A stretch of 64,000 nt of DNA from Sphingomonadales bacterium (GTDB taxonomy: Bacteria > Pseudomonadota > Alphaproteobacteria > CAZZKF01). Position 1 is the first letter of the stretch; every line of letters begins with the position of its first letter. Below the pieces are notes generated by a model that ran no database searches, was not told where the DNA came from, and worked only from the letters and a program-made list of their open reading frames with translations. Position numbers and translations under genes: made by a program. Positions 4,979 to 63,144 of the stretch are shown piece after piece. The stretch spans positions 1,817 to 65,816 of the forward strand of contig JBHHWG010000005.1 of assembly GCA_046756385.1 (NCBI GenBank). Reading direction: 5' to 3'.

Positions 4979-5119
4979 ATGAGACGCACTCGATCGAACC
5001 GACGCCCAGACCTGTTCACCGGCGGCGCCAAGATTCTGTTGCTGGTTTTTATTTTCGCCGGCTATGCCACGGCGTTGTCGGACCTGGTGACCGAAACCGG
5101 ATTCGGACGGATTGTGTAA
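4979..5119 (+). CDS. 46-aa single-pass membrane mini-protein, hypothetical; below the ORF-track length cutoff
   Basis: ATG at 4979 is preceded by AGGAGA at -12..-7. Translation: MRRTRSNRRPDLFTGGAKILLLVFIFAGYATALSDLVTETGFGRIV. Basic N-terminus plus one hydrophobic helix. The stop codon overlaps the first base of a hairpin-rich repeat. Confidence 0.5.
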   Translation: MRRTRSNRRPDLFTGGAKILLLVFIFAGYATALSDLVTETGFGRIV

Positions 5120-5277
5120 TACCAAATCCCGATGAGGGCGACTCATCGGGATTTGGTGGACGTGACCCTATTGATTGGAAACAATCAATAGGGTCAAGGA
5201 CTAGCGACCAAGGGGGAGCGCAGCCTGCGTGGCGCTTGAACGCGGATACAAGGGTCATGCTTAATGACCCTTGGTAT
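5119..5277. repeat. MITE-like dispersed repeat, family 1, copy 1 (complete)
   Basis: 7-bp terminal inverted repeats ATACCAA...TTGGTAT. Three internal hairpins: CCAAATCCCGATGAG/CTCATCGGGATTTGG, GACCCTATTGATTG/CAATCAATAGGGTC and AAGGGTCAT/ATGACCCTT. Near-identical copies occur at 15160-15328 and 11356-11438. Confidence 0.7.
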
Positions 5278-5297
5278 AAGCCCCGGCGGCCGCTTGA

Positions 5298-11073: not shown

Positions 11074-11149
11074 GCCGATGTAGCTCAGATGGTAGAGCAA
11101 CGCATTCGTAATGCGTGGGTCGGGGGTTCGAGTCCCTCCATCGGCACCA
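11074..11149 (+). tRNA. tRNA-Thr (anticodon CGT)
   Basis: Manual cloverleaf: acceptor GCCGATG/CATCGGC, D arm GCTC..GAGC, anticodon stem ACGCA/TGCGT with loop TTCGTAA, T arm GGGGG-TTCGAGT-CCCTC, CCA encoded. Confidence 0.9.
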
Positions 11150-11196: not shown

Positions 11197-11355
11197 GAGC
11201 GTTTTTAACCTAATCGGAATCAAGTTCGGCTGTTTATATGCCGCCCTGGCGGCGCCCTCAAAGCCTTGCATAGCGCCGCTATGCCGCGTTTTAACGACTT
11301 GCCAGGACAACATCTAAACACCCTCCTTTTGATCCCGATTAAGTTGAAAACGCTC
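11197..11355. repeat. MITE-like repeat, family 2 (complete), with ~25-bp imperfect terminal inverted repeats
   Basis: Left end GAGCGTTTTTAACCTAATCGGAATC and right end GATCCCGATTAAGTTGAAAACGCTC are inverted copies. The left ~76 bp recur at 60998-61073 with 4 mismatches. Located 47 bp downstream of tRNA-Thr. Confidence 0.6.
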
Positions 11356-11438
11356 TAGCGACCAAGGGGGAGCGCAGCCTGCGTGCTGCGTGGCGCTTGA
11401 ACGCGGGTACAAGGGTCATGATCAATGACCCTTGGTAT
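11356..11438. repeat. family-1 MITE-like repeat, copy 2 (right portion only), abutting the family-2 element
   Basis: TAGCGACCAAGGGGGAGCGCAGCCTGCGTG...AAGGGTCATGATCAATGACCCTTGGTAT matches the right halves of copies at 5119-5277 and 15160-15328; left hairpins absent. Confidence 0.6.
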
Positions 11439-11452
11439 AAAACGGACCGGCA

Positions 11453-13083: not shown

Positions 13084-15033
13084 ATGGCTGAACAGAGTAA
13101 CCGGATCGTCATCACTCTGCCCGATGGCAGCGTCAGACCCTATGACAGCCCCGTGACCGGCGCCACCATTGCCGCCGATATTGGCCCGGGACTGGCCAAG
13201 GCGGCCCTGTTTTTGCGGATCAACGGCGAGGTTTTCGATCTCTCGTTGCCAATCGAACGCGACGCCAATATCGAGATCGTCACAGCCAAGGACGATGCCC
13301 TGCTTGAGCTGTTGCGTCACGATGCCGCCCATGTCATGGCCGAAGCGGTGAAGGAGCTTTATCCCGAAACCCAGGTGACGATCGGCCCCGCGATCGAAAA
13401 CGGTTTCTATTACGATTTCGCCCGTAAAGAGCCGTTCGTGCCCGAGGACCTCGAAAAGATCGAGGCCCGCATGCGGGAAATCGTGGCGCGCGACGAGCCG
13501 ATCACACGCGAAGTCTGGGACCGGGACGAGGCGATAAAATTTTTCCGGGACCTGGGTGAAAACTATAAGGCGGAAATTATCGAGGATATCCCGGCCGGCG
13601 ACCAGATCACGCTCTATCGCCAGGGTAACTTCGTGGATTTGTGTCGCGGACCGCATCTTTCGTCGACCGGCAAGCTGGGCGTCGCCTTCAAGCTGATGAA
13701 ACTGGCCGGCGCCTATTGGCGTGGCGATTCGCGCAATGAAATGCTGCAGCGGATCTATGGAACCGCCTGGCGCGACGACAAGGAACTCAAGGCCTATCTG
13801 CGTCGGCTTGAGGAGGCCGAGCGGCGCGATCATCGCAAATTGGCCAAGGCCATGGGCCTGTTTCATTTCCAGGAGGAAGGCCCCGGCGCGGTGTTCTGGC
13901 ACCCCAAGGGATGGACGTTGTTTCAAGGTCTGATCGACTATATGCGCAACCGCCAGCAAGCGGCGGGCTATGTCGAGATTTCAACGCCCGATCTGCTCGA
14001 TAAATCCTTGTGGGTCACGTCGGGCCACGTCGACAAGTTCGGCGAGGACATGTTTTATTCCGAAACCCCGGACGGCCGGACCTATGCCATCAAGCCGATG
14101 AATTGCCCGGGCGGCGTCCAGGTGTTCAAGCAGGGCCTGCGAAGCTATCGCGAGCTGCCGTTGCGGATTGCCGAGTTCGGCAAGGTTCACCGGTTTGAAC
14201 CTTCGGGCGCCCTGCATGGCCTGATGCGGCTGCGCGCCTTCACCCAGGATGACGCCCATATTTATTGCACCGCTGACCAGTTGCAGGATGAGTGCATCAC
14301 GGTCACTGAACTGATTCTGGAAATCTATAAAGACTTCGGTTTCGAGGATGTGCGGATCAAGTTCGCGGATCGGCCCGACAAGCGTATCGGCGCCGATGAG
14401 GTGTGGGATACCGCCGAAGCCGCCCTGCGCAAGGCCCTGGATGCGACCGGCATCGACTACACCTATAATCCGGGCGAAGGGGCGTTCTACGGACCCAAGC
14501 TGGAGTTTGTGCTCAGGGACGCGATCGGCCGGGATTGGCAATGTGGCACCTTGCAGGTCGATCTGAACCTGCCGGGCCGTTTCAATGCCACCTATGTCGG
14601 CGAAGACGGCGAGCGCCATTTCCCGGTCATGCTGCACCGGGCGCTTTTCGGCTCGCTTGAGCGCTTCACCGGCATTCTGATCGAGCATTATGCGGGACGC
14701 TTGCCGCTATGGCTGGCGCCGGTGCAGGTCGTCGTCGCGACAATCACCTCGGACGGCGATGACTATGCGCGCGACGTTTGCCGGCGACTCACGAAGGCAG
14801 GGCTGCGGGCCGAGACCGATTTGCGCAACGAAAAAATCAATTACAAGGTCAGGGAGCATTCCCTGGCCAAGGTTCCGGTGTTGTTCGTCGTCGGCAAGCG
14901 GGAGGCCGAACATCAGACCGTTTCCATCCGGCGTCTCGGACGCAAGGATCAAGAAATCCTTGCGCTTGGCCAAGCGGTGGATAAACTGAGCGACGAAGCG
15001 GCGGCACCGGGAGCGGATCGGGGGCGATCTTGA
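13084..15033 (+). CDS. thrS: threonine--tRNA ligase
   Basis: N-terminal TGS domain, class II aaRS core motifs and a C-terminal anticodon-binding domain; 649 aa. Confidence 0.95.
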
Positions 15034-15159
15034 ATTCCAGCAAGCCTGCGAATTCGCATGCCTGAAATTTGGTGTGCGGCGAGGGTGCGTTGTTGCTGAC
15101 CGATGGCGCCTGTGCCGTTGGCACGCGAGACGTCTTGAGCGTGAACGCAAGGTGTGACT

Positions 15160-15328
15160 TATACCAAATCCCGATGAGGACGACTCACTGAGATTTGGGA
15201 GATTTGGTGGACGCTGACCCTATTGATTGGAGACAATCAATAGGGTCAAGGACTAGCGACCAAGAGGGAGTGCAGCCTGCGTGGCGCTTGAACGCAATAT
15301 AAGGGTCATGATCAATGACCCTTGGGAT
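15160..15328. repeat. family-1 MITE-like repeat, copy 3 (complete, with a ~10-bp insertion in hairpin 1)
   Basis: ATACCAAATCCCGATGAGGACGACTCA...CAATCAATAGGGTCAAGGACTAGCGACCAAGAGGGAGTGCAGCCTGCGTGGCGCTTGAACGC...AAGGGTCATGATCAATGACCCTTGGGAT; lies between thrS and infC. Confidence 0.7.
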
Positions 15329-15362
15329 TAGACTAAGGAGGACTTAAATAGCCAGACGACCC

Positions 15363-52567: not shown

Positions 52568-53613
52568 CGGATCATTCCTTCCTTCAGTTTATTTCCCCGG
52601 ATCGCGCGGGGAACATGGCGGTCGAACCATTTCCGGGCGGGTGTCAGTGCCGGATGCTCCAGGTCGCGCTCCAGCAGTCCCCAGACCCGGCCAATCAGGT
52701 CGAGATAGGCCGATTTGCCGTCGCGCCGCCACAGCCGTGTAAAAATGCCGATGATCTTGGTGTTGCGCTGGGCGCCAAGCAGGTGATAGGCGCCGATGAA
52801 CCATGTCGCGTCGAATGCCGGGTCAGCGGCTTTGGCGGCGGCCTGGTAACGCGCGATCATGGCGCTTTCCAGTGCCGGGGGCACGTCCCGCCGGGCGTCC
52901 TGCAGCAGGGACACCAGATCGTAGGCGGGACAGCCGATCACCGCATCCTGAAAATCCAGCAGCCCGACCCGGTCGAGGCCGGTTCGCCCCGGCAGCCACA
53001 TCAGATTATCGGCGTGATAATCGCGCAGAACGAGAACGGATCGACCGAGTTCCGCGTCGGCAAACAGAGCCCGCCACATATTTTCGAACGCGGTGCGCAG
53101 GGCCGGCGCGGTGCCCTGACCGGTTAGCGCCGGCAAATACCAGTCGATAAACAGCCTGGCTTCACCCAGAAGAGCCGATTCGTCATAAGCCGGCATGTCG
53201 AAATGCAAGTGGTCCCTTATCGGCAGGCGAGATGGCGGCTGGTGGCGGTGCAGATCGACCAGCACATCGACCGCCGCCTCGTAAAGCGCTTTTTCGCCGG
53301 GTTCCCGGCCGCTCGACAGCAAGGCCGTGAACCTGTCGTCGCCCAGGTCTTCGAGAAGGAGGAAACCCTCATCGATATCGGCCGCCAGAATTCCCGGGCT
53401 GCTGTAGCCAAGCGCCGCCAGATGGTTGGCGACGGCGATGAATGGCCGCACATCCTCGTGCTCGGGCGGGGCGTCCATCAACACGGCGCGCGCCGGGCCC
53501 TGAAGGCGGAAATAACGGCGGAACGAAGCATCGCCGGCCAGCGGTGCGACGCCGGCGCCCCCCCAGCCGTGGCGCTTCAGAAAATCCGCGATCCGCTCCC
53601 TGCGCCCGGTCAT
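52564..53613 (-). CDS. aminoglycoside-phosphotransferase-fold kinase, AmgK-like (anomeric MurNAc/GlcNAc kinase)
   Basis: APH-fold motifs (DYHADNLMW Brenner-like, LLDFQD); the pair with the MurU-like gene suggests peptidoglycan recycling. Confidence 0.7.
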   Translation of the reverse strand: MTGRRERIADFLKRHGWGGAGVAPLAGDASFRRYFRLQGPARAVLMDAPPEHEDVRPFIAVANHLAALGYSSPGILAADIDEGFLLLEDLGDDRFTALLSSGREPGEKALYEAAVDVLVDLHRHQPPSRLPIRDHLHFDMPAYDESALLGEARLFIDWYLPALTGQGTAPALRTAFENMWRALFADAELGRSVLVLRDYHADNLMWLPGRTGLDRVGLLDFQDAVIGCPAYDLVSLLQDARRDVPPALESAMIARYQAAAKAADPAFDATWFIGAYHLLGAQRNTKIIGIFTRLWRRDGKSAYLDLIGRVWGLLERDLEHPALTPARKWFDRHVPRAIRGNKLKEGMIR

Positions 53614-54161
53614 GGGGTCCTGGTCTGTTTGAGGGCAGCCAGCCGACTCGTCCAGGAGATGCCAGCGCTCAGGCGTGCCCCGCGGGCGCCCGTGTCACCG
53701 CGAAATTCGAGATCGAGATTCAGAATGTCCTCCGGCAGTAAAGACGCCATTTTGTCGGGCCACTCGATCAGGCTTACGCCCTCTTCAAAAGCGTCCTCAA
53801 TGCCAAGTTCAAAAACTTCCTCGGGCGCCGCGATGCGATAAAGGTCGAAATGCCACACCGAGGTCACGGGCGCGCGCGACTGGCCGGCATTTTCCATGGC
53901 GTTGCCGAAGCTGTAGACCTGCACCAGGGTAAAGGTCGGGCTGGGCACTTCCTCGCCGCATCCCAGGGCGTGAATGAAATGGCGGGCGAATGTGGTTTTG
54001 CCGGCGCCGAGGTCCCCTCTCAGTGCGATTACGTCGCCGGTCCGGGTCACAGAGGCCAGGGTTTGGGCCAGCGTCGCCGTGGCGGTCTCGTCAGGCAACT
54101 CCAGCACCAGCGAGACTTGCTGGCCGGATCCTTTCGCGTCGCATTCCAGATGGTCGGGCAT
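53610..54161 (-). CDS. tsaE: tRNA threonylcarbamoyladenosine biosynthesis protein TsaE
   Basis: LRGDLGAGKTTFAR P-loop and PTFTLV motif; ATG at 54161 inside the longer track ORF. Confidence 0.8.
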   Translation of the reverse strand: MPDHLECDAKGSGQQVSLVLELPDETATATLAQTLASVTRTGDVIALRGDLGAGKTTFARHFIHALGCGEEVPSPTFTLVQVYSFGNAMENAGQSRAPVTSVWHFDLYRIAAPEEVFELGIEDAFEEGVSLIEWPDKMASLLPEDILNLDLEFRGDTGARGARLSAGISWTSRLAALKQTRTP

Positions 54162-54214
54162 GGGGAATTTGTAACGTGGCGGCTCCTGGCCTGCAACTCG
54201 CGAGGTTGCCGATT

Positions 54215-56644
54215 TCAATTTATGGCGGTGGTGGGAAGGGCCTGGCCACCGTCGTCCGTTTCGCCCGCCGGCTCCCCTTTTTTCGTGAGGGTGAGGCGCT
54301 TTGGCAGAATGCACCGAACCATCGTTCCCTTGCCGGACTGGGATGACAATTCAACCCGGCCGCCATGGAGCTCGACAAAACTGCGCACCAGCGAAAGCCC
54401 GAGGCCGGCGCCCTGGGTCGGCCGACCGACACTGCCGGTCCAGAATTTCTCGAAAGCCGCGATCTGCTCCGTGGAGTTCATGCCGATGCCGGTGTCGGAT
54501 ACGTAGAATTCGAAGTGATCGCCTGTGGAGCGGGCGCCGAGACTGATGCCGCCTTCCGACGGCGTAAATTTGATCGCATTGCTCAGCAAATTGAACAAGA
54601 CCTGTTTGAGGCGGCGTTCGTCGGCTTCGATCCGGCCAATCCTGGGAAAACAATCGAAATGGATTGAAATTCGCTTTTTCTCCGCTTGTTCCTGCGCGAT
54701 CGACAGCACGCTCTTCAGGGCCTCGTAGAAATCGAACTCGGTCGGCTCCAGCGTCATGGCGCCAGCCTCGATGGTCGCCAGATCGAGAATGTCGTTGATC
54801 AGGGTCAATAGCTGCTTCGACGAATCGAGAGTGCCATCGACATATTCGTGCTGCCGCTCGTTGAGGGGCCCGTAAAATTCCTTATCGAGAATTTCCGTGA
54901 AGCCCAGAATGGTGTTGAGCGGCGTTCTCAACTCATATGACACATGGGCGATAAATTCTGATTTAAGGCGGTCGGAAGTCTCCAGCGCTTCATTACGCTC
55001 GCGCAGTGCCTGCTCGATGCGAAACCCGTCCGACACGTCGAGATAGGTATACAAAGTCGCACCGTCGGGCAGGGGAAGCGATGCATAATCAATCACGGTG
55101 CCGTCCGGCCGGTGCATGCGGCCGACGTTTGACGTGCGTTCGGTGGCATGATCGAGAATCGCGCCCGTGACCTTCCGCCATTCCTCGTCATGATCGAACT
55201 GTTTGCGGCATCGCTCGACGACTTCCTTGATGTGCGGCGTTTTCTGAAGAAAGCTGTCGTCGAGCCGCCAGATCTTGGCGAAGGCCGGATTATAGAGCTT
55301 GAGCAACCCGTCGCTGCCGAAAACGGCGACCCCTTCGAACAGATTGTTGAGGGATTCGCGCTGCACCGCTGTCAGCGTGTTGTATTGCGCCTCAAGCTTC
55401 AGCCGATCGGTCACGTCCTCATACAAGACCAGCAGGCCGCCGAACGGGTGGGGCTGGGTGACGACCCGCAGGGTCGACTCGTCCGGCAAATGCCACAGCT
55501 CTTCCCTGGGAGCGATGAGTTCGGTGTAAAGCATGAGCTGTTCACGCTTCCAGGCCGGGAAATCCGCCTGTTCCGGCAGCCGCCGCTTGGCCTGCATCGA
55601 TTCCAGAATTTCACTGTGGTGCGGCTTGGTCGCAAGCCAGTCTTCCGGCAGCCGCCATAATTGGGCAAATGTGCTGTTGAAGAATTCCAGAAAACTGTCG
55701 CGACCGAATATGGCGATTGCGGAGGACATCTTGTTGAGGGTTTCTGAATGGGCCTCAATGTGGCGCGACAGTTCGGCGCGAGCGCACTCCAGATCGGTGT
55801 TGTCGATCGCGAAACCCGCTACCGCCTTGCCAGAAGCCAATGGAACGTCGGTCGTTGCAATCGCCCGGCGCTGGCCCTTTATGACCACAAAATGTTGCTC
55901 GGTCCTGGCCGTCTTGCTCGCCAGCGCCTCCCCGGCGGCCATGTTTGGCGAACGCGCCAGCGCATTCGAAACCAGCTCGGTTTGCGCGTCGATCACCGCC
56001 TCGGCGGATTGACCGTCGACCGCCTCGACATAGGCTTTGTTGACCCATTCAATCTTCAAGTCCCGCCTTCGCCGCCAAATCGGGAACGGCGCGGCGCCAA
56101 GTATGGCTGTCAGATAGTCATTCGCCCGTGTCACCTCCGAGATGCGTTCATCCCGATGTTTCTCACGGGCCGCCTGGTCTGTGATGTCGCTAAACCAGAT
56201 TATGTGTCGCGGGGAGGCGGGGCCATCATTTGCCCGCCCCTCGGCCCGCAGGGTTTTTTGTCCGTTTGCGGCATGAAGCGTGATGGCGAAGGGGTGGTTG
56301 ATCGCCGTAAGTTTTGTCAGGGCGTCGGCAAATTCAGCAAAATCCGATGGGTCGATGCCGTGGGCGCCATCCGTTGCGGCGAGTTGCCGCCATTCGGTCA
56401 CCGGCGTGGCGATATCCAGCCATTCCAGAAGCCTGGGGCAACAATGATCCGGCGCTTGCCGGTCGATAATCAGGTAACCGCCGGAGGCGGACGTCAAAAC
56501 CTCCTCGGCTAGTTGGGCGGACCGGCGCACCGCGTTGCCTCGGATAAGAGCCCACACCATGCCGGCAAGACTTCCAATGGCCAGCAAGGCAATGGCCAGG
56601 AAGCCAATCACTGTAAACAATCCCGGATTGGGTCCAGGATTCAT
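54215..56644 (-). CDS. membrane-anchored multi-PAS sensor histidine kinase
   Basis: N-terminal TM helix, at least three PAS-like segments, HisKA (HVSYELRTPLNTILGF) and HATPase_c (N, G1, G2 boxes). Confidence 0.8.
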   Translation of the reverse strand: MNPGPNPGLFTVIGFLAIALLAIGSLAGMVWALIRGNAVRRSAQLAEEVLTSASGGYLIIDRQAPDHCCPRLLEWLDIATPVTEWRQLAATDGAHGIDPSDFAEFADALTKLTAINHPFAITLHAANGQKTLRAEGRANDGPASPRHIIWFSDITDQAAREKHRDERISEVTRANDYLTAILGAAPFPIWRRRRDLKIEWVNKAYVEAVDGQSAEAVIDAQTELVSNALARSPNMAAGEALASKTARTEQHFVVIKGQRRAIATTDVPLASGKAVAGFAIDNTDLECARAELSRHIEAHSETLNKMSSAIAIFGRDSFLEFFNSTFAQLWRLPEDWLATKPHHSEILESMQAKRRLPEQADFPAWKREQLMLYTELIAPREELWHLPDESTLRVVTQPHPFGGLLVLYEDVTDRLKLEAQYNTLTAVQRESLNNLFEGVAVFGSDGLLKLYNPAFAKIWRLDDSFLQKTPHIKEVVERCRKQFDHDEEWRKVTGAILDHATERTSNVGRMHRPDGTVIDYASLPLPDGATLYTYLDVSDGFRIEQALRERNEALETSDRLKSEFIAHVSYELRTPLNTILGFTEILDKEFYGPLNERQHEYVDGTLDSSKQLLTLINDILDLATIEAGAMTLEPTEFDFYEALKSVLSIAQEQAEKKRISIHFDCFPRIGRIEADERRLKQVLFNLLSNAIKFTPSEGGISLGARSTGDHFEFYVSDTGIGMNSTEQIAAFEKFWTGSVGRPTQGAGLGLSLVRSFVELHGGRVELSSQSGKGTMVRCILPKRLTLTKKGEPAGETDDGGQALPTTAIN

Positions 56645-56842
56645 GCCGCCGCCGCCAGGCTAAATGTCAGGTGGACGTGCATCCGTGATGTCCATCGGGT
56701 AGCTATTTTCCGACAGAGATTAATGCCTTGGCATGGATAAAAACAAGCCTCCATGCCAGCTTTCGTCCATGCCGGGATGGGGATGGAGCCGGGTTGGGCG
56801 CGCTGTCATGTCCTGATCACGGCGCGCCCCCGAAAATCCCGC

Positions 56843-58138
56843 TTAGTATCGGTAGTGGTCGGGCTTGAACGGGCCGTTGACCGGCACGCTGATATAATCG
56901 GCCTGATCGTCGTTCAGTTTTGTAAGCTTGGCGCCAAGCCGGTCAAGGTGAAGCGAAGCCACCTTTTCGTCGAGATGCTTTGGCAGGACATAGACCTTAC
57001 GCTCATATTTGGCGTGGTTGTTCCACAATTCGATTTGCGCCATGACCTGATTGGTGAACGATGCGCTCATGACGAAGCTGGGGTGGCCGGTGGCGCAGCC
57101 CAGATTGACCAGCCGGCCCTTGGCCAGCAGGATCAGCCGCTTGCCGTCCGGGAACTCGATTTCGTCGACCTGGGGCTTGACTTCGTGCCAGGTGTAGTTG
57201 CTAAGCGCGTCCACCTGAATTTCAGAATCGAAATGGCCGATATTGCACACGATGGCCCGGTCCTTCATCTGGCGCATATGGTCGAGCGTGATGACGTCGA
57301 TATTGCCGGTGGAGGTGACGAAAATGTCGCCGGTCGCGGCGGCATCGTCCATGGTAATGACCTGATAGCCTTCCATTGCCGCCTGCAGGGCGCAGATCGG
57401 GTCGATCTCGGTAATCATGACCCGGGCGCCCTGGCGTTGCAGGGCGGCCGCGCAGCCCTTGCCAACATCGCCATAACCGCAAACCACGGCGATCTTGCCC
57501 GCGATCATGACATCGGTCGCCCGTTTGATGCCGTCAACCAGACTTTCGCGGCACCCATAGAGATTGTCGAATTTTGATTTGGTCACGCTGTCATTGACGT
57601 TGATCGCCGGGACCTGAAGGCGGTTTTCCTTCTCCATCTGATAGAGCCGCAGCACACCGGTCGTGGTTTCCTCCGACAGGCCGCGAACATCCTCTAAAAG
57701 CTCGGGATATTTGTCGTGCATCAACGCCGTCAGATCGCCGCCGTCGTCCAGTATCATGTTCGGGCGCCAGCCATCTGTACCGACGACCGTTTGCTCGATG
57801 CACCAGTCGAATTCCTCATCTGTCTCGCCCTTCCAGGCGAAAACCGGAATATCGCTGGCGGCGATGGCCGCCGCGGCGTGATCCTGCGTCGAAAAGATAT
57901 TGCACGAGCTCCAGCGAATCTCGGCGCCCAGGGCGACCAGCGTTTCGATGAGCACGGCGGTTTGAATCGTCATGTGAAGACAGCCCGCGATCCGGGCGCC
58001 GGCAAGTGGTTTCTGGCCCGCATATTCGTCGCGCAACGCCATCAGACCGGGCATTTCGGTTTCAGCAATGGCGATTTCGCTGCGACCCCAATCGGCAAGC
58101 TCGATGTCGGCGATTTTGTAGTCCGAAAACAGGCCCAT
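56843..58138 (-). CDS. ahcY: adenosylhomocysteinase
   Basis: [19 protein letters not shown] start; NAD-binding [10 protein letters not shown]; ~431 aa. Confidence 0.95.
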
Positions 58139-58305
58139 CGGGACCTCCTGCAAAGTTGAAATGAATTCGTTCAAGACTGTTGGCAAAGACCGTTGGCGCC
58201 GGCAATCCGGAGCCCGCCCCATGAAATGCCGCTATATAGCAACGTGGGGGCCGTTGGGCAATCATAAAGATATCTTTATATTTGCATTTGGGTCGAAGGA
58301 CCTGT

Positions 58306-58623
58306 CTATTCCTCGCCGAAGTTGCCTTCCACCAGATCGACCAGGGCCCGCAATGCGTTCTGGGCTTCACGGCCGGCGGCTTCGATGGAGATTTGGGAAT
58401 TCGTTGCGGCGGCCAGCATCATCAGGCCCATGATGGAGGTGCCGCAAACGATTATGTCGCCTTTGGTGACCGTCACTTCAGCGTCGAATCGCGTGGCCAT
58501 CTTGACGAATTTCGCCGAGGCTCTGGCGTGAAGGCCGCGCCGATTGCCAATTCTGACGGTTTGTCGGCGGATATTTTTTTCGACGTCGGCCGAACGCTGG
58601 GAATGCTTGTCCTGATGGTCCAT
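58306..58623 (-). CDS. ptsH: HPr family phosphocarrier protein (NPr-like)
   Basis: GLHARASAKFV active-site His region and a regulatory Ser (GTSIMGL). Confidence 0.85.
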   Translation of the reverse strand: MDHQDKHSQRSADVEKNIRRQTVRIGNRRGLHARASAKFVKMATRFDAEVTVTKGDIIVCGTSIMGLMMLAAATNSQISIEAAGREAQNALRALVDLVEGNFGEE

Positions 58624-58662
58624 TTTTGAGGGATGTATCTAAAAATCCTGCCGCGACGGCGG

Positions 58663-59067
58663 CTACTCTTCACCGGCCAGCAGGTGGGATGCAACACTGA
58701 TGTATTTCCTCCCCGCTTCTTGCGCCGCGGCCACCGCATTATCGAGGGTCGCCTGTTCGCGAACGCTGGCGAGCTTGATTAACATGGGCAGGTTGACGCC
58801 GGCAATCACTTCGACATTGGCGTTTTCAATAATCGATATGGCAAGATTTGACGGAGTGCCGCCGAACATGTCGGTCAGCAAAATCACGCCGCTTCCATTG
58901 TCGACATCAGCGACCGCGTCGAGGATATCCTGACGACGTTGTTCCATGTCGTCGTCCGACTCGATGCAGATTGAGCGCACCTCGGTTTGAGGACCGACGA
59001 CATGCTCGGTCGCCGCCAGAAATTCCTCCGCCAGTCTGCCATGCGTAACAAGCACCAATCCGATCAT
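58663..59067 (-). CDS. PTS EIIA(Man)-family protein
   Basis: IGLVLVTHGRLAEE with the phosphorylatable His of EIIA-Man. Confidence 0.8.
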   Translation of the reverse strand: MIGLVLVTHGRLAEEFLAATEHVVGPQTEVRSICIESDDDMEQRRQDILDAVADVDNGSGVILLTDMFGGTPSNLAISIIENANVEVIAGVNLPMLIKLASVREQATLDNAVAAAQEAGRKYISVASHLLAGEE

Positions 59068-59086
59068 GAAACTTTCCCTAAACGCT

Positions 59087-60019
59087 TCATTTTCGATCAA
59101 GCTCGCGGTGGACTATCTGCACCTTGTAGCCCGCGTCTGCAAGGATAACCGAGATTTGCTCGGCCAGATAGACCGAGCGATGACGGCCGCCGGTGCAGCC
59201 AAATGCTATGGTGAGATATGATTTTCCCTCGTCCTGGTAGCGCGGCAGCAACGAAAGAATCATAGACCGCGTCTGGTCCAGAAATTGCTGATAAAAGGGA
59301 TCGGCCGCGATGAAGGCGCCGACCTCAGAATCCTTTCCGGTCCCATCCCTGAGTTTGTCCACATAGTGAGGATTTGCCAGGAAACGGACATCAAAAACGA
59401 GATCCGCCTCTCGGGGCAATCCCCGCCGATAGGAAAAAGACACCACCGACAACGTCAAGGATGCGTCACCCTCCAGTTCGAAATGTCCCCGAACAACGCG
59501 GCGCAGGTCGGCGATCGTCAGGTCGGTGGTGTCGAAAACATAATCGGCGCGCTCGCGAAGCCGGTTCATTGTTTGCCGCTCCCGCTCAATGCCCTCGATT
59601 AACGGTCGGTCCCCGGCCAGGGGGTGGCGACGGCGGGTCTCGGTGAAGCGATGATGAAGAATTTCGTCGCTGCAGTCGCAAAAGACCAGCGACACGTCGA
59701 GGTTGTCATTGGCCTTGAGCGTCGCGGTTCGGCTTTCGAATCGCTCCGCCCGAAAGGCGCGTGTGCGACTGTCGATGCCGATCGCCAGACTACGTGGGCG
59801 GCGGTGATCCGGGTTGTCGTCGATCACCTCTATCAAATTAGGAAGCAACGAAAATGGCAGATTGTCCACCGCTTCGTAGCCGATATCCTCCAGCGCCTTG
59901 AGCACTGAACTTTTGCCCGCCCCCGACATCCCTGTCACCAGTACGATGCGCAATCGGGATATTGGCGCGGCCGTTTCCCGGGCCAAGCTGTTCGCGGTAT
60001 CCGATGACCTGACCATCAA
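59087..60019 (-). CDS. rapZ: RNase adapter protein RapZ (YvcJ/YhbJ P-loop ATPase)
   Basis: VLVTGMSGAGKSS Walker A plus a C-terminal RapZ domain. Confidence 0.85.
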   Translation of the reverse strand: MMVRSSDTANSLARETAAPISRLRIVLVTGMSGAGKSSVLKALEDIGYEAVDNLPFSLLPNLIEVIDDNPDHRRPRSLAIGIDSRTRAFRAERFESRTATLKANDNLDVSLVFCDCSDEILHHRFTETRRRHPLAGDRPLIEGIERERQTMNRLRERADYVFDTTDLTIADLRRVVRGHFELEGDASLTLSVVSFSYRRGLPREADLVFDVRFLANPHYVDKLRDGTGKDSEVGAFIAADPFYQQFLDQTRSMILSLLPRYQDEGKSYLTIAFGCTGGRHRSVYLAEQISVILADAGYKVQIVHRELDRK

Positions 60020-60546
60020 ACGCGCCTTATTCTGTCCTGGGTCGCTTCGACGGCCAGCCTGATCTTGGCGGCGGCGGAAATTTCAAACGGGTCCAGGACA
60101 ATGCGGCTGACCATGATGCCGTCAATCTCGATCTGTTCCGGTTCGGGCAAACGCGGCACCTGTTCCCGGTCAACCAGATCGACCACCAGGCTGACGGTGC
60201 ATGAACTGGCATTCGGCAAACTGATCAGACCGATGCCGCGCACCTCCATAATGCCGGCGATCGATTCGGGCGGGGTGGCGTGTAACAGCCCGTCGCGCGC
60301 GCTTAAGGAAACGTAATCGTCGGACAACAGCCTGGCCCCGCCGTCGATCAGCCGCAGGGCAAGGTCGGATTTGCCACTGCCCGACGGACCGCGCAACAAT
60401 ATACCGGCGCCGTCAAGATCAATGCAGGTTGCGTGCTCCAGGATCATGTCGCTCTCATTCGGGCCGGAATAGGTTCCCAATCCAGGCGGGCATGGTAGCA
60501 CAAGCCTGGACAAAGACCGACACCGGATCCTGGTGGTGTAAATCAA
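60016..60546 (-). CDS. hprK: HPr kinase/phosphorylase C-terminal-domain protein (alphaproteobacterial short HprK)
   Basis: GPSGSGKS P-loop and GIMEVRGIG signature; 176 aa with no N-terminal domain. Confidence 0.8.
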   Translation of the reverse strand: MIYTTRIRCRSLSRLVLPCPPGLGTYSGPNESDMILEHATCIDLDGAGILLRGPSGSGKSDLALRLIDGGARLLSDDYVSLSARDGLLHATPPESIAGIMEVRGIGLISLPNASSCTVSLVVDLVDREQVPRLPEPEQIEIDGIMVSRIVLDPFEISAAAKIRLAVEATQDRIRRV

Positions 60547-60632
60547 GTTAATTTGATGGCATGGACGCCTCTTGTCCCGGCGCCGAGAGCGTCATAATGG
60601 AAGTTGCTGAACTTCATCAACAGGAGGCGACC

Positions 60633-60836
60633 ATGAGGGATATTACGACAGTTGGATTGGATCTGGCAAAGAGGGTGTTTCAAGTACACGGGGCGGACGG
60701 TGAGGGGCGGATGGTTTTGCGCCGGAAGATGCGGCGCGGCCAGGTGCTGAAGTTTTTTGCCGGGTTGCCGCCGTGCCTGGTTGGTCTGGAGGCCTGTGCC
60801 AGTGCGCATTACTGGGCGCGACTGGGAGCGCATTGA
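60633..60836 (+). pseudogene. IS110-family transposase, N-terminal 67-aa remnant
   Basis: MRDITTVGLDLAKRVFQVHGADGEG...CLVGLEACASAHYWARL matches the DEDD-transposase N-terminus, then an immediate stop. AGGAGG RBS intact. No remainder of the ~340-aa gene downstream. Confidence 0.65.
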
Positions 60837-60997
60837 AACGCCCTACTTTCATGGGATGGGCGAAATACCATTCCCACGAAAGAATCTAAAAGCTTGATCG
60901 GGAAGGTCCGGTTTGGGACCGGAATAGCGAACTACCGCAATCGACTTGGGAAGGAACGTCAATAGCCAAGAAGCGGTCATTCCTTTTTAGGTGCTTA

Positions 60998-61073
60998 GAG
61001 CGTTTTTAACTTAACCGGAATCAAGTTCGGCTGTTTATATGCCGCCCTGGCGGCGCCCTTAAAGCCTTGCATA
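60998..61073. repeat. family-2 repeat, partial copy (left TIR plus ~50 bp)
   Basis: GAGCGTTTTTAACTTAACCGGAATCAAGTTCGGCTGTTTATATGCCGCCCTGGCGGCGCCCTTAAAGCCTTGCATA; 4 mismatches versus 11197-11272. Confidence 0.55.
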
Positions 61074-61252
61074 CCCGCTGCCACCGTCCTCTCTGGCAAT
61101 AGCCCCGACACCCCGCACGGTGTTGTGATATGTAAAAATACATCAGACATGCTATATGATATGCGCTGGCATATCGATCTTGAAATGCTTTCATGGGAAT
61201 GATATATTAAAAGACATTATAGGCTGTCTCAAATATAGAATTATGCATCAAG

Positions 61253-61861
61253 ATGAACTATGCCACCGAATATATCGCCAGCACCCTGAAGGCAGCCCGA
61301 GAAAACAAGGGGCTCAGCCAGCGGGAGCTGAGCGCCAAATCAGGCGTGCCGCAGGGCCATATCTCGAAGATTGAGAACGGGGCTGTTGATCTCAGAGTTT
61401 CAAGCCTGATCGCGTTGGCCCGTATTCTTGAGCTGGAGTTGACGCTCGTGCCCCGCAAAGCGGTGCCTGCCGTCAAATCGATTGCACGAAGCAGTGCACG
61501 CAGCACCCACGGGAAGAGCGGCCAGGATTTGCGTCTGGCCCACCAAGAGCTGACGCGTCTTCAGCTCACCATTGGGAGCTTGCCCAAGATAGCTCTGTCC
61601 ACAAGGGAAGTGGCGCAGCTCCAGCGCCAGGTGAGGGAACTTCAGCATTTTCCGCTTTCACGACCTGATCTTGAAGCGATACGGACAATCAATCAAACAC
61701 TGAAGGCATTCAGGAATAACGCTGGGAATCTGAGCGCTATCCGCCAGTCACTTTCCCAAATTCAAAGTTTGCGCAACGCTCTGGCGCACAGTTCAGTCAA
61801 TGTGCCGCGGATAGAATCCGTGCGCCCTGCCTATAGTCTTGATGAGGACGATCATGGCTGA
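61253..61861 (+). CDS. hipB: HipB-like XRE-family HTH antitoxin with a long C-terminal helical extension (202 aa)
   Basis: N-terminal HTH (LKAARENKGLSQRELSAKSGVPQGHISKIENGAVDLRVSSLIALARIL); overlaps hipA by 8 nt; C-terminal ~110 aa are coiled-coil-like. Confidence 0.7.
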   Translation: MNYATEYIASTLKAARENKGLSQRELSAKSGVPQGHISKIENGAVDLRVSSLIALARILELELTLVPRKAVPAVKSIARSSARSTHGKSGQDLRLAHQELTRLQLTIGSLPKIALSTREVAQLQRQVRELQHFPLSRPDLEAIRTINQTLKAFRNNAGNLSAIRQSLSQIQSLRNALAHSSVNVPRIESVRPAYSLDEDDHG

Positions 61862-63077
61862 TGTCTCCGTCCTCGATGTCCTGCTTTATGACGAGCCGAT
61901 TGGCACACTCACTCGTGTTGGCGGTGACCGCACGCTCTTTGCCTTCAACGATGCCTATATCGAGGATCAAAACCGGCCTGTGCTCGGGCTGAGCTTCAAG
62001 GACCAGTTCGGTGAATTGATCACCGAATTCAGGCCCACCCAAACGCGGGTAATGCCGTTCTTTTCGAATTTGCTCCCTGAAGGGCATATGCGCACTTATC
62101 TGGCCGAGCGTGCCGGTGTAAATCCCGTGCGCGAATTCTTCCTGCTCTGGGTGCTCGGCGTGGATTTGCCAGGGGCGATCACCATCAAGCCTGCTGATGG
62201 TGAAGCATGGCCGCCGGATGCCCATGATGATGGCGATGACAATCATGATAATGATCGTCGCGAAAACGCGCTGAGGTTCTCGCTGGCCGGAGTGCAACTC
62301 AAATTCTCGGCCATCAACGAGGCTCGCGGCGGACTGACAATTCCTGCCAAAGGTATTGGCGGTTCGTGGATCGTGAAGCTGCCCTCGCGTGAGTTTGCCG
62401 GTGTACCCGAGAACGAATTCTCGATGTTGACGTTGGCCCGGCTCATCGGCATGGATGTACCGGCACTGCAACTCGTCGATATCGATGCGATCAAGAATTT
62501 GCCAGAAGATATCGGGGCTTTGCAAGGGCAAGCCCTCGTCATCGAGCGCTTTGACCGGCAGCAGGGCAGCTACGCCGTTCACATTGAGGACTTTGCGCAA
62601 ATTTTCGGGATTTATCCCGAGGACAAATACAAAAGAGCCAGTCACCGGAGCATTGCAAGGGTGATTGCCGCCGAGGGTGGCGAGGCCGACATTGTCGAAT
62701 TTGTCCGGCGTATGACTTTCAACGTGCTGATCGGCAATGCCGATATGCACATGAAAAACTGGTCGATGATCTATTCGGACCGGCGTAATGCCGCGCTGGC
62801 TCCGGCCTATGATTTTGTTTCAACGATTCCGTACATGCCGGATTGCAACGCCGCTCTGAATTTTAGCCGGACCAAGCGCTTCAATGAATTTTCGGAGGAC
62901 GAGCTTTCCCATCTTGCCGCCAAGGCCCTGCTGCCGGAAAAGCTTGTTCTCGATACCGCGCGTGAAACCGTCGCCCTGTTTCATCAGCACTGGCAGGCGG
63001 AAAAGGCAAACCTGCCGCTATCTGTAGACGTAATTAAGGCGGTCGAAGATCATCTCTTAGTGATCCCCATTGCCTAA
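61854..63077 (+). CDS. hipA: HipA-family Ser/Thr kinase toxin
   Basis: HipA_N Couple motif LAGVQLKFSA, catalytic loop GNADMHMKNWS (D-x-H-x-K-N), YDFVST Mg-binding motif. Confidence 0.85.
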   Translation: MADVSVLDVLLYDEPIGTLTRVGGDRTLFAFNDAYIEDQNRPVLGLSFKDQFGELITEFRPTQTRVMPFFSNLLPEGHMRTYLAERAGVNPVREFFLLWVLGVDLPGAITIKPADGEAWPPDAHDDGDDNHDNDRRENALRFSLAGVQLKFSAINEARGGLTIPAKGIGGSWIVKLPSREFAGVPENEFSMLTLARLIGMDVPALQLVDIDAIKNLPEDIGALQGQALVIERFDRQQGSYAVHIEDFAQIFGIYPEDKYKRASHRSIARVIAAEGGEADIVEFVRRMTFNVLIGNADMHMKNWSMIYSDRRNAALAPAYDFVSTIPYMPDCNAALNFSRTKRFNEFSEDELSHLAAKALLPEKLVLDTARETVALFHQHWQAEKANLPLSVDVIKAVEDHLLVIPIA

Positions 63078-63144
63078 CCGCTCCAACTCCGTGCACACTG
63101 CCGCTCGCGCCATGCTTGTTCTCTGGTGACGGGGAGTGCGGTTC

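Follow-up and report, generated by a model that had tools for sequence, protein, structure and literature searches.

The DNA analysed here, hereafter the window, is a stretch of 64,000 nucleotides (nt) from a Sphingomonadales bacterium (GenBank assembly GCA_046756385.1, contig JBHHWG010000005.1, positions 1,817 to 65,816), and towards its right end it carries the overlapping genes hipB and hipA. Our reading of this locus, to which we assign a probability of roughly 0.7, is that it is an intact type II toxin-antitoxin cassette, a HipBA of the y4dL/y4dM subfamily, which regulates itself, is situated at a breakpoint and encodes a HipB with a docking tail.

The hipBA locus and the HipA kinase

61253-61861, + strand: hipB-long, 202 amino acids (aa); XRE helix-turn-helix (HTH) core, C-terminal helical extension and conserved tail
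61854-63077, + strand: hipA, 407 aa; putative HipA-family Ser/Thr kinase toxin with N-subdomain 1 kept
62274-62312, + strand: Gly-rich ATP-binding loop of HipA, RFSLAGVQLKFSA, residues 141-153, invariant in the family alignment
62742-62813, + strand: HipA catalytic loop D297-M-H299-M-K301-N302 and Mg-binding D320, from alignment to E. coli HipA

According to the list of open reading frames (ORFs) the two genes overlap by 8 nt when hipA is read from ATG 61854. The hipA ORF could open either there or at TTG 61839 (61839-63077), but the HipA homologues all begin MADVSVL, which identifies ATG 61854 as the real start and rules out the TTG.

A hipBA module with intact-looking kinase motifs had been proposed for this position in a first-pass annotation made from the sequence alone, and both the Pfam domains and the aligned catalytic residues bear this out. 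The searches with hidden Markov models that it had called for identified Couple_hipA (PF13657, residues 7-111, E 1.2e-21, 77.5 bits against a cutoff of 22.5) and HipA_C (PF07804, residues 142-380, E 6e-48, 163.8 bits against a cutoff of 30.5, covering model positions 1-213 of 213) in HipA and HTH_3 in HipB, while N-subdomain 1 of HipA was also recognised by NCBIfam TIGR03071 (56.9 bits, cutoff 27.8). When HipA was aligned to its E. coli counterpart, S143 fell on the autophosphorylation site S150, the ATP-binding K175 on K181, and D297, H299, K301, N302 and D320 on D309, H311, K313, N314 and D332, respectively. These residues are invariant across 24 HipA family members; the concern that closer alignment might reveal mutated catalytic residues can be laid aside, as all are present. 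In sequence terms HipA is an intact kinase with a complete catalytic apparatus.

Just before the Gly-rich loop, residues ~120-139 (62211-62270) make up a highly acidic, His-rich loop of variable length (PPDAHDDGDDNHDNDRRENA) that is found throughout the subfamily and where E. coli HipA has a longer segment. A search with PADLOC returned only generic HTH matches and weak PDC-M03A kinase matches. The guanine-cytosine (GC) content of hipBA is 0.55-0.56, against 0.61 for the window.

A long HipB with a conserved tail

61253-61453, + strand: HTH core of HipB, residues 1-67; Pfam HTH_3, profile match to E. coli HipB (1e-8)
61454-61798, + strand: HipB residues 68-182; helix 68-83, variable linker 84-88 and helical bundle with QLQRQVRELQHF and LRNALAH
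61823-61858, + strand: HipB tail RPAYSLDEDDHG, residues 191-202; Y194 invariant in 91 members

Pfam finds a single domain in HipB, HTH_3 at residues 12-64 (E 3e-14). The structure prediction that had been suggested for the extension was carried out with AlphaFold2 on an alignment (A3) of 91 HipB sequences reaching down to 33% identity (family members are 33-76% identical), and gave a helical bundle followed by an extended tail in a model with a mean predicted local distance difference test (pLDDT) score of 88.3. Along the chain the model consists of the HTH helices to residue 58, a segment LELTLVP, a helix at 68-83, a short loop of low confidence, the bundle (helices 89-108, 112-115, 118-130, 137-155 and 160-182) and finally residues 183-202 as the tail, with pLDDT of 61-74. 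In Foldseek searches of the PDB only the HTH of this model was matched, by HipB(Lp) 8ezt, E. coli HipB and S. oneidensis HipB, the root-mean-square deviation (rmsd) to 8ezt and to E. coli HipB being 1.6-2.0 Å over 64 columns. For the extension no Pfam model and no solved relative was found, either by PDB sequence and profile searches, whose matches were coiled-coil or designed helical proteins only, or by Foldseek; Stl was considered as a relative and rejected, its Foldseek alignments having an rmsd of ~11 Å and not being meaningful beyond the HTH. A weak alignment between the bundle halves (residues ~98-131 and ~141-174; bundle 61517-61798; hhalign probability 67%, E 5e-5) hints that the bundle may be an internal duplication of a helical hairpin.

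The conservation of HipB across the 91 sequences is very uneven: the HTH scores 0.73, helix 68-83 0.61, loop 84-88 0.12, the bundle 0.39, residues 183-190 0.21 and the tail at 191-200 0.75. The tail, with the consensus RPAYxL(D/E)EDD, is thus about as conserved as the HTH. R174 and Y194 are invariant, A193 and L196 are at least 90% conserved, and the motifs of the family are QLQRQVRELQHF, LRNALAH and the tail RPAYSLDEDD. Such a peptide, conserved like a DNA-binding domain and placed after a variable linker, is the signature of a putative tethered docking motif. Since the wobble positions of the R-P-A-Y-x-L codons vary freely, the selection on the tail acts on the protein.

The length of HipB is genuine, as the first-pass annotation had it, but it is odd only in comparison with E. 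coli HipB and is usual in a large family, to which y4dL of plasmid pNGR234a belongs. A search with the 202-aa protein gave 1,522 matches, the best 120 of which are 196-235 aa long (most 201), with at least 96% query coverage and 56-76% identity. A mis-called start, with an internal ATG giving a protein of ~90 aa, was excluded, and the 202-aa start is judged correct because the homologues align from residue 1 and an operator (O4, below) abuts the ATG. With the extension alone (residues 70-202) 150 matches at E <= 0.001 were obtained among 1.84 billion cluster representatives; with clusters at 50% identity the family comprises at least 150 clusters. In every full-length match the alignment starts at about residue 70 of a protein of ~200 aa, so the extension occurs in one architecture.

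All the features of the subfamily were found in the window: a HipB of ~200 aa with an HTH, a helical extension, the motif [LF]RNxxxH and a (R/x)PAYxL-acidic tail, together with a HipA of ~405-410 aa. HipB scores below the cutoffs of both the NCBIfam HipB equivalog NF007271 (28.7 bits, cutoff 79) and the Y4mF family TIGR03070 (42.6 bits, cutoff 71.65), and the subfamily is a distinct one. The text of the paper on Hip kinase phylogeny by Gerdes et al. 2021 (PMC8262856) makes no mention of it, and its signature motifs were not found in the part of Table S1 of that paper that was available.

A tblastn search against plasmids returned 88 records with the HipB-long family, the hosts being Sinorhizobium, Bradyrhizobium, Agrobacterium, Rhizobium, Sulfitobacter, Novosphingobium, Komagataeibacter and others. 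Nothing matched among GenBank phages, and in IMG/VR there was a single full-length match, for which reason an association of the cassette with phages is taken to be negligible. The neighbours of hipBA differ between loci: on pNGR234a the pair is accompanied by tra/trb genes and a reverse transcriptase, on a Phaeobacter plasmid by DUF4365 and likewise a reverse transcriptase, on a Novosphingobium plasmid by parDE and, at one further locus, by a serine recombinase, transposases and a HEPN/AAA_13 pair. The HipB-long cassette is an accessory gene pair, mostly found on alphaproteobacterial plasmids and islands.

Two contigs, L004 (8001-9868) and L005 (5047-6913), encode an identical 218-aa HipB-long. 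In L005 hipA is intact (405 aa), while L004 keeps, after a gap, only a 217-aa C-terminal HipA_C fragment, which looks like decay of the toxin with the antitoxin/repressor kept.

The promoter, its operators and the coupling of the two genes

61127-61144: operator O1, GATATGTAAAAATACATC, 9/10; class ~-128
61158-61175: operator O2, GATATGCGCTGGCATATC, 10/10, a perfect GATAT-N8-ATATC; class ~-97
61180-61208, + strand: sigma-70-type promoter, TTGAAA, 17-nt spacer and TATATT with TG before the -10; 10/12 consensus
61201-61218: operator O3, GATATATTAAAAGACATT, 8/10, overlapping the -10 hexamer; class ~-53, the most populated
61232-61249: operator O4, AATATAGAATTATGCATC, 7/10, ending 3 nt before the hipB ATG; class ~-21
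61844-61848, + strand: hipA Shine-Dalgarno GAGGA, within Asp/Glu codons of the HipB tail

The stretch upstream of hipB (61120-61252) has a GC content of 32%, and short AT palindromes (ATATGATAT) had been pointed out in it; comparison shows that they are real and are not there by chance but are pieces of a family-wide array of four operators. When inverted repeats were collected upstream of hipB in 71 loci, the palindrome TGATATA-N6-TATATCA recurred. The 71 upstream regions were then scored for GATAT-N8-ATATC with no more than one of the 10 half-site bases mismatched, which gave 161 sites against 1.3 in shuffled sequences (maximum 5). These sites cluster in four classes, at ~-128, -97, -53 and -21 from the hipB ATG, and are the predicted palindromic operators of HipB in its own promoter. 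Within each of the pairs O1-O2 and O3-O4 the sites lie ~31 bp, or three helical turns, apart. In the window the sites near hipB with at most one mismatch are O1 and O2, and only one further match, at 13573, occurs in the 64 kb. The -10 hexamer of the promoter falls inside O3, and a cTTGAa box is seen at the same relative position in many homologous loci.

No recognisable Shine-Dalgarno sequence was found for hipB (61232-61255). In most family members O4 ends 3 nt before the hipB ATG (consensus ...TATCAAnATG), and a repressor bound there might also block the initiation of hipB translation.

The pairing of the genes was followed in 84 further hipBA loci (80 metagenomic contigs, L091-L170; plasmid regions L088-L090; assembly contigs L005 and L006). 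hipA lies directly downstream of hipB in all 79 loci with room for it, with the 8-nt overlap in 71 of these, and 62 of 71 family loci have a Shine-Dalgarno-like motif for hipA at -16..-5. The codons GAT GAG GAC GAT of the HipB tail serve at the same time as the Shine-Dalgarno sequence of hipA, and the final hipB codons overlap the hipA start (ATGGCTGA); constraints from the protein and from translational coupling are therefore superimposed at 61823-61861. Judged by this layout of their reading frames, hipB and hipA are shown to be translationally coupled.

Proposed mechanism and alternatives

In the model that we propose, HipB dimers would repress the operon by binding the four GATAT-N8-ATATC operators, which flank and overlap the promoter and reach to the start of hipB, and HipB would hold HipA inactive. 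On loss of HipB, HipA would stop growth by phosphorylating an essential factor of translation, the likeliest candidate being an aminoacyl-tRNA synthetase; on plasmids HipBA would stabilise the replicon. The extra 135 residues of HipB would make up a helical scaffold, a flexible linker and the conserved peptide RPAYxL(D/E)EDD, the last of which, while tethered, would dock on HipA or inhibit it, as a more elaborate version of the C-terminal tail found in E. coli HipB. For this HipA-docking or inhibitory role of the tail, taken as one part of the overall model, we see an even chance. A second regulatory input, one of the functions that had been suggested for the extension, is less favoured by the conservation pattern than a tail that would dock on HipA.

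More tentatively, and with the odds against it, the RPAYxL-acidic peptide could plug the active-site or substrate cleft of HipA, in which case one polypeptide would combine the DNA binding of HipB with a HipS-like blocking function. To our knowledge HipB does not touch the active site of HipA in E. coli HipBA, and if a tethered plug were the true arrangement the mode of HipA neutralisation would differ from that system.

Several points weigh against the overall reading. The case for the role of the tail is the conservation pattern and nothing besides, and part of this conservation may be explained by the overlap of the acidic run and the last two residues with the ribosome-binding site and start codon of hipA. 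The AlphaFold2 model of HipA, built from a low-diversity alignment of 24 sequences, has a mean pLDDT of 43.5 and is too poor for its pockets to be inspected for tail docking. In the window O3 and O4 are degenerate (8/10 and 7/10). The boundaries and timing of the insertion cannot be defined because there is no close relative, the nearest HprK being 72% identical. Finally, a search of the literature returned no experimental work on any member of the subfamily, and the toxicity, antitoxin activity and kinase target attributed to it follow from homology.

The main rival to a docking tail, and one that is compatible with it, is that the extension is mainly an oligomerisation module: the bundles of HipB dimers on neighbouring operators would associate to give cooperative repression and the HTH core would neutralise HipA, as in E. 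coli. The arrangement of the operators in two pairs with a spacing of ~31 bp, family-wide, fits this, as do the all-helical nature and coiled-coil-like composition of the extension, its PDB matches being confined to coiled-coil or designed helical proteins, and the weak sign of a duplicated helical hairpin (hhalign probability 67%). What it leaves unexplained is why a short peptide after a variable linker, and not the surface of the bundle, is the most conserved part, and we regard it as possible but a good deal short of probable.

Alternatively, extension and tail could act as a regulatory input or a degron, recognised by Lon/ClpXP or answering to a cellular or phage signal that would set the stability of HipB, without contact to HipA. 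The tail is modelled as extended and with lower pLDDT (61-74), and the protease-sensitive C-terminus of E. coli HipB offers a parallel; the unstructured C-terminus is the protease-sensitive part of that protein, and degradation of E. coli HipB by Lon is cited in PMC8262856. On the other hand, it is rare for a degron to require an invariant Tyr and a near-invariant A-Y-x-L core when the proteins are only 33-76% identical, and neither Pfam nor Foldseek found a ligand-binding fold, which together make this explanation unlikely.

The genomic setting of the cassette

To the left of hipBA, on the minus strand, lie hprK, rapZ, EIIA-Man, ptsH and ahcY, with an IS110 fragment, a half copy of a repeat resembling a miniature inverted-repeat transposable element (MITE) and the 32%-GC stretch between hprK and hipB. 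The block APH-tsaE-PAS histidine kinase-ahcY-ptsH-EIIA-rapZ-hprK (52576-60447) is collinear with the nearest relatives, L172 and L174, which come from a protein collection. A scan of species-representative genomes with RapZ gave 80 loci with a RapZ identity of at most 60%; rapZ-EIIA-Man is present in all of them, and recognisable hprK and ptsH in nearly all. hipBA was found within 10 kb of hprK-rapZ in none of the 80.

In 45 of the 68 loci with enough left flank chvG is located directly upstream of hprK, and chvI precedes chvG in all three loci whose upstream genes were checked with Pfam. The nearest relative found, L172 (HprK 72% identical), has chvG directly before hprK and lacks hipBA there. 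L174 (HprK 64%) likewise lacks hipBA and has the order chvI-chvG-hprK-rapZ-EIIA-ptsH-ahcY-PAS kinase-tsaE-APH, with which the window is collinear from APH (52576) to hprK (60447); the collinearity stops at the start of hprK. No chvG or chvI was found in the window or in the 8 kb beyond hipA on contig L001, and neither the 361-aa membrane protein nor the genes that follow it on this contig, to the right of hipA, have homologues near hprK in the 80 relatives, so that the right flank provides no synteny anchor. Since collinearity ends at the hprK start and the relatives lack hipBA, the cassette is accessory, and it sits at what these comparisons mark as the breakpoint of a rearrangement through which the ancestral chvI-chvG pair next to hprK was replaced. 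The earlier suggestion that this junction interrupts the synteny of chvG-chvI with hprK agrees with the closest relatives, which have chvG or chvI-chvG in that place.

It could be supposed instead that the cassette is ancestral at this site and that the IS110 and MITE debris arrived later, and relatives carrying hipBA here without the insertion sequence (IS) remnant were looked for in the synteny comparison; none does. No relative is near enough to date the event (best HprK 72%, best RapZ 60%), which leaves some room for an ancestral cassette, but hipBA is absent from all 80 related loci and also from the two nearest relatives with contigs extending upstream of hprK (L172 and L174), which have chvG there, the family is patchy and plasmid-rich, and the GC content of the cassette is below that of its surroundings. 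We consider it quite improbable.

Two further features lie between hprK and the promoter:

60622-60836, + strand: IS110-family transposase remnant, the 5' ~200 nt of the gene; outside the toxin-antitoxin module
60998-61073, + strand: MITE-like half copy, 76 nt, 96% identical to 11197-11272 (left half of the full copy)

The presence of a 67-aa N-terminal IS110 fragment upstream of hipB was supported by both NCBIfam and blastn. It runs from ATG 60633 to the stop at 60834-60836; residues 30-87 of the ORF 60561-60836 match positions 1-65 of the 343 of NCBIfam transpos_IS110 (E 3.4e-13), the score of 49.5 bits lying below the cutoff of 140, so this is not a full DEDD transposase of ~340 aa, and blastn to annotated IS110 transposase genes covers 60622-60821 only. 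No other copy of the remnant was found in the window, and an Rfam search of the window gave three tRNAs only, none of them at the remnant. The idea that IS110 had delivered hipBA was not sustained: what is left is a stump of ~200 nt with no mechanistic tie to the cassette, which elsewhere stands in unrelated contexts without IS110.

The partial repeat noted earlier upstream of hipB ("family-2") is also real and corresponds to half of an element of ~160 nt, and the breakpoint at hipBA is littered with IS and MITE debris. The full MITE-like element is found at 11197-11357, just downstream of a tRNA gene (11074-11146), and has the inverted ends GAGCGTTTTTAAC...GTTGAAAACGCTC. Three other short repeat families in the left part of the window, D1, D2 and D4 (5104-5279, 11386-11440 and 15146-15330), are rich in hairpins such as TGACCCTATTGATTGG...CAATCAATAGGGTCA and look like dispersed MITE or repetitive extragenic palindromic (REP) elements.

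Significance

The locus is an ordinary toxin-antitoxin module of an uncharacterised variant subfamily of HipBA, and the parts that merit follow-up are the extension of the antitoxin, its conserved tail and the four-operator promoter. The subfamily is large and occurs on many rhizobial, roseobacter, acetic-acid-bacterial and sphingomonad plasmids, and an antitoxin with an extra domain and a sharply conserved tail lends itself to simple truncation and point-mutant tests. The promoter with its four operators, found by comparison alone, suggests that a distant branch, using another half-site, has kept the regulatory logic of E. coli hipBA. As regards this genome the significance is modest: one accessory toxin-antitoxin cassette marks a rearrangement that parted hprK from chvG-chvI, genes whose linkage is believed to have a bearing on the regulation of envelope and carbon functions in alphaproteobacteria.

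Comparison with known Hip systems

HipBA of E. coli K-12 (hipB b1508, hipA b1507) shares with the window the order hipB-hipA, the overlap of the genes and an XRE HTH antitoxin, and its HipA likewise has N-subdomain 1, the Ser of the Gly-rich loop, the DxHxKN loop and the Mg-binding Asp. The two HipA proteins are 28% identical, and that of the window is without two insertions. The difference is greater for HipB, which is 88 aa in E. coli as against 202 aa in the window, with its 135-residue helical extension and RPAYxL-acidic tail. In both systems four palindromic operators with 5-bp half-sites 8 bp apart surround the promoter, the half-site being GATAT in the window and TATCC in E. coli, whose HipB binds cooperatively to four TATCC-N8-GGATA operators (PMC3920265). 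The C-terminus of E. coli HipB sits in a pocket of HipA, and the restraint of HipA by HipB is described as not fully elucidated (both PMC8262856).

The HipBST systems (E. coli O127; Legionella Lpg2368-2370) resemble the window in the kinase core, for which they give the best PDB sequence matches (E ~8e-20), and HipB(Lp) 8ezt is structurally the closest to the HTH of the window HipB. They have, however, a HipS gene and a HipT without N-subdomain 1, whereas the window has two genes, as do all 79 loci, and a HipA in which N-subdomain 1 is present. That HipB-long is only a transcriptional regulator, as is the HipB of HipBST, which is not the antitoxin there (PMC8262856), with HipA kept in check otherwise, e.g. 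by autophosphorylation of S143, is very improbable: although among PDB sequences HipT is a slightly better match to the HipA kinase core (7.8e-20) than E. coli HipA is (1.1e-16), there is no third gene or HipS-like ORF, HipA keeps N-subdomain 1 (Couple_hipA) and all 79 loci have a strictly bicistronic arrangement. HipR and the long HTH antitoxins (Stl-like, PAS-containing) of Gerdes et al. 2021 are, like HipB of the window, HTH partners of a Hip kinase with extra C-terminal sequence.

The known pair belonging to the same subfamily as that of the window is y4dL/y4dM (P55411/P55412) of Sinorhizobium fredii NGR234 plasmid pNGR234a. No experimental characterisation of it was found in the searchable literature, but the GenBank record of the plasmid labels the two genes a 'symbiotic plasmid stability locus'. 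They differ from the genes of the window in being plasmid-borne, between tra/trb genes. y4dL is an HTH protein of 196 aa with the same extension, the motif LRNAAVH and the tail SAYALDEEDD; it overlaps the 409-aa HipA y4dM by 8 nt, as in the window, and the proteins are 37% (HipB) and 60% (HipA) identical to those described here.

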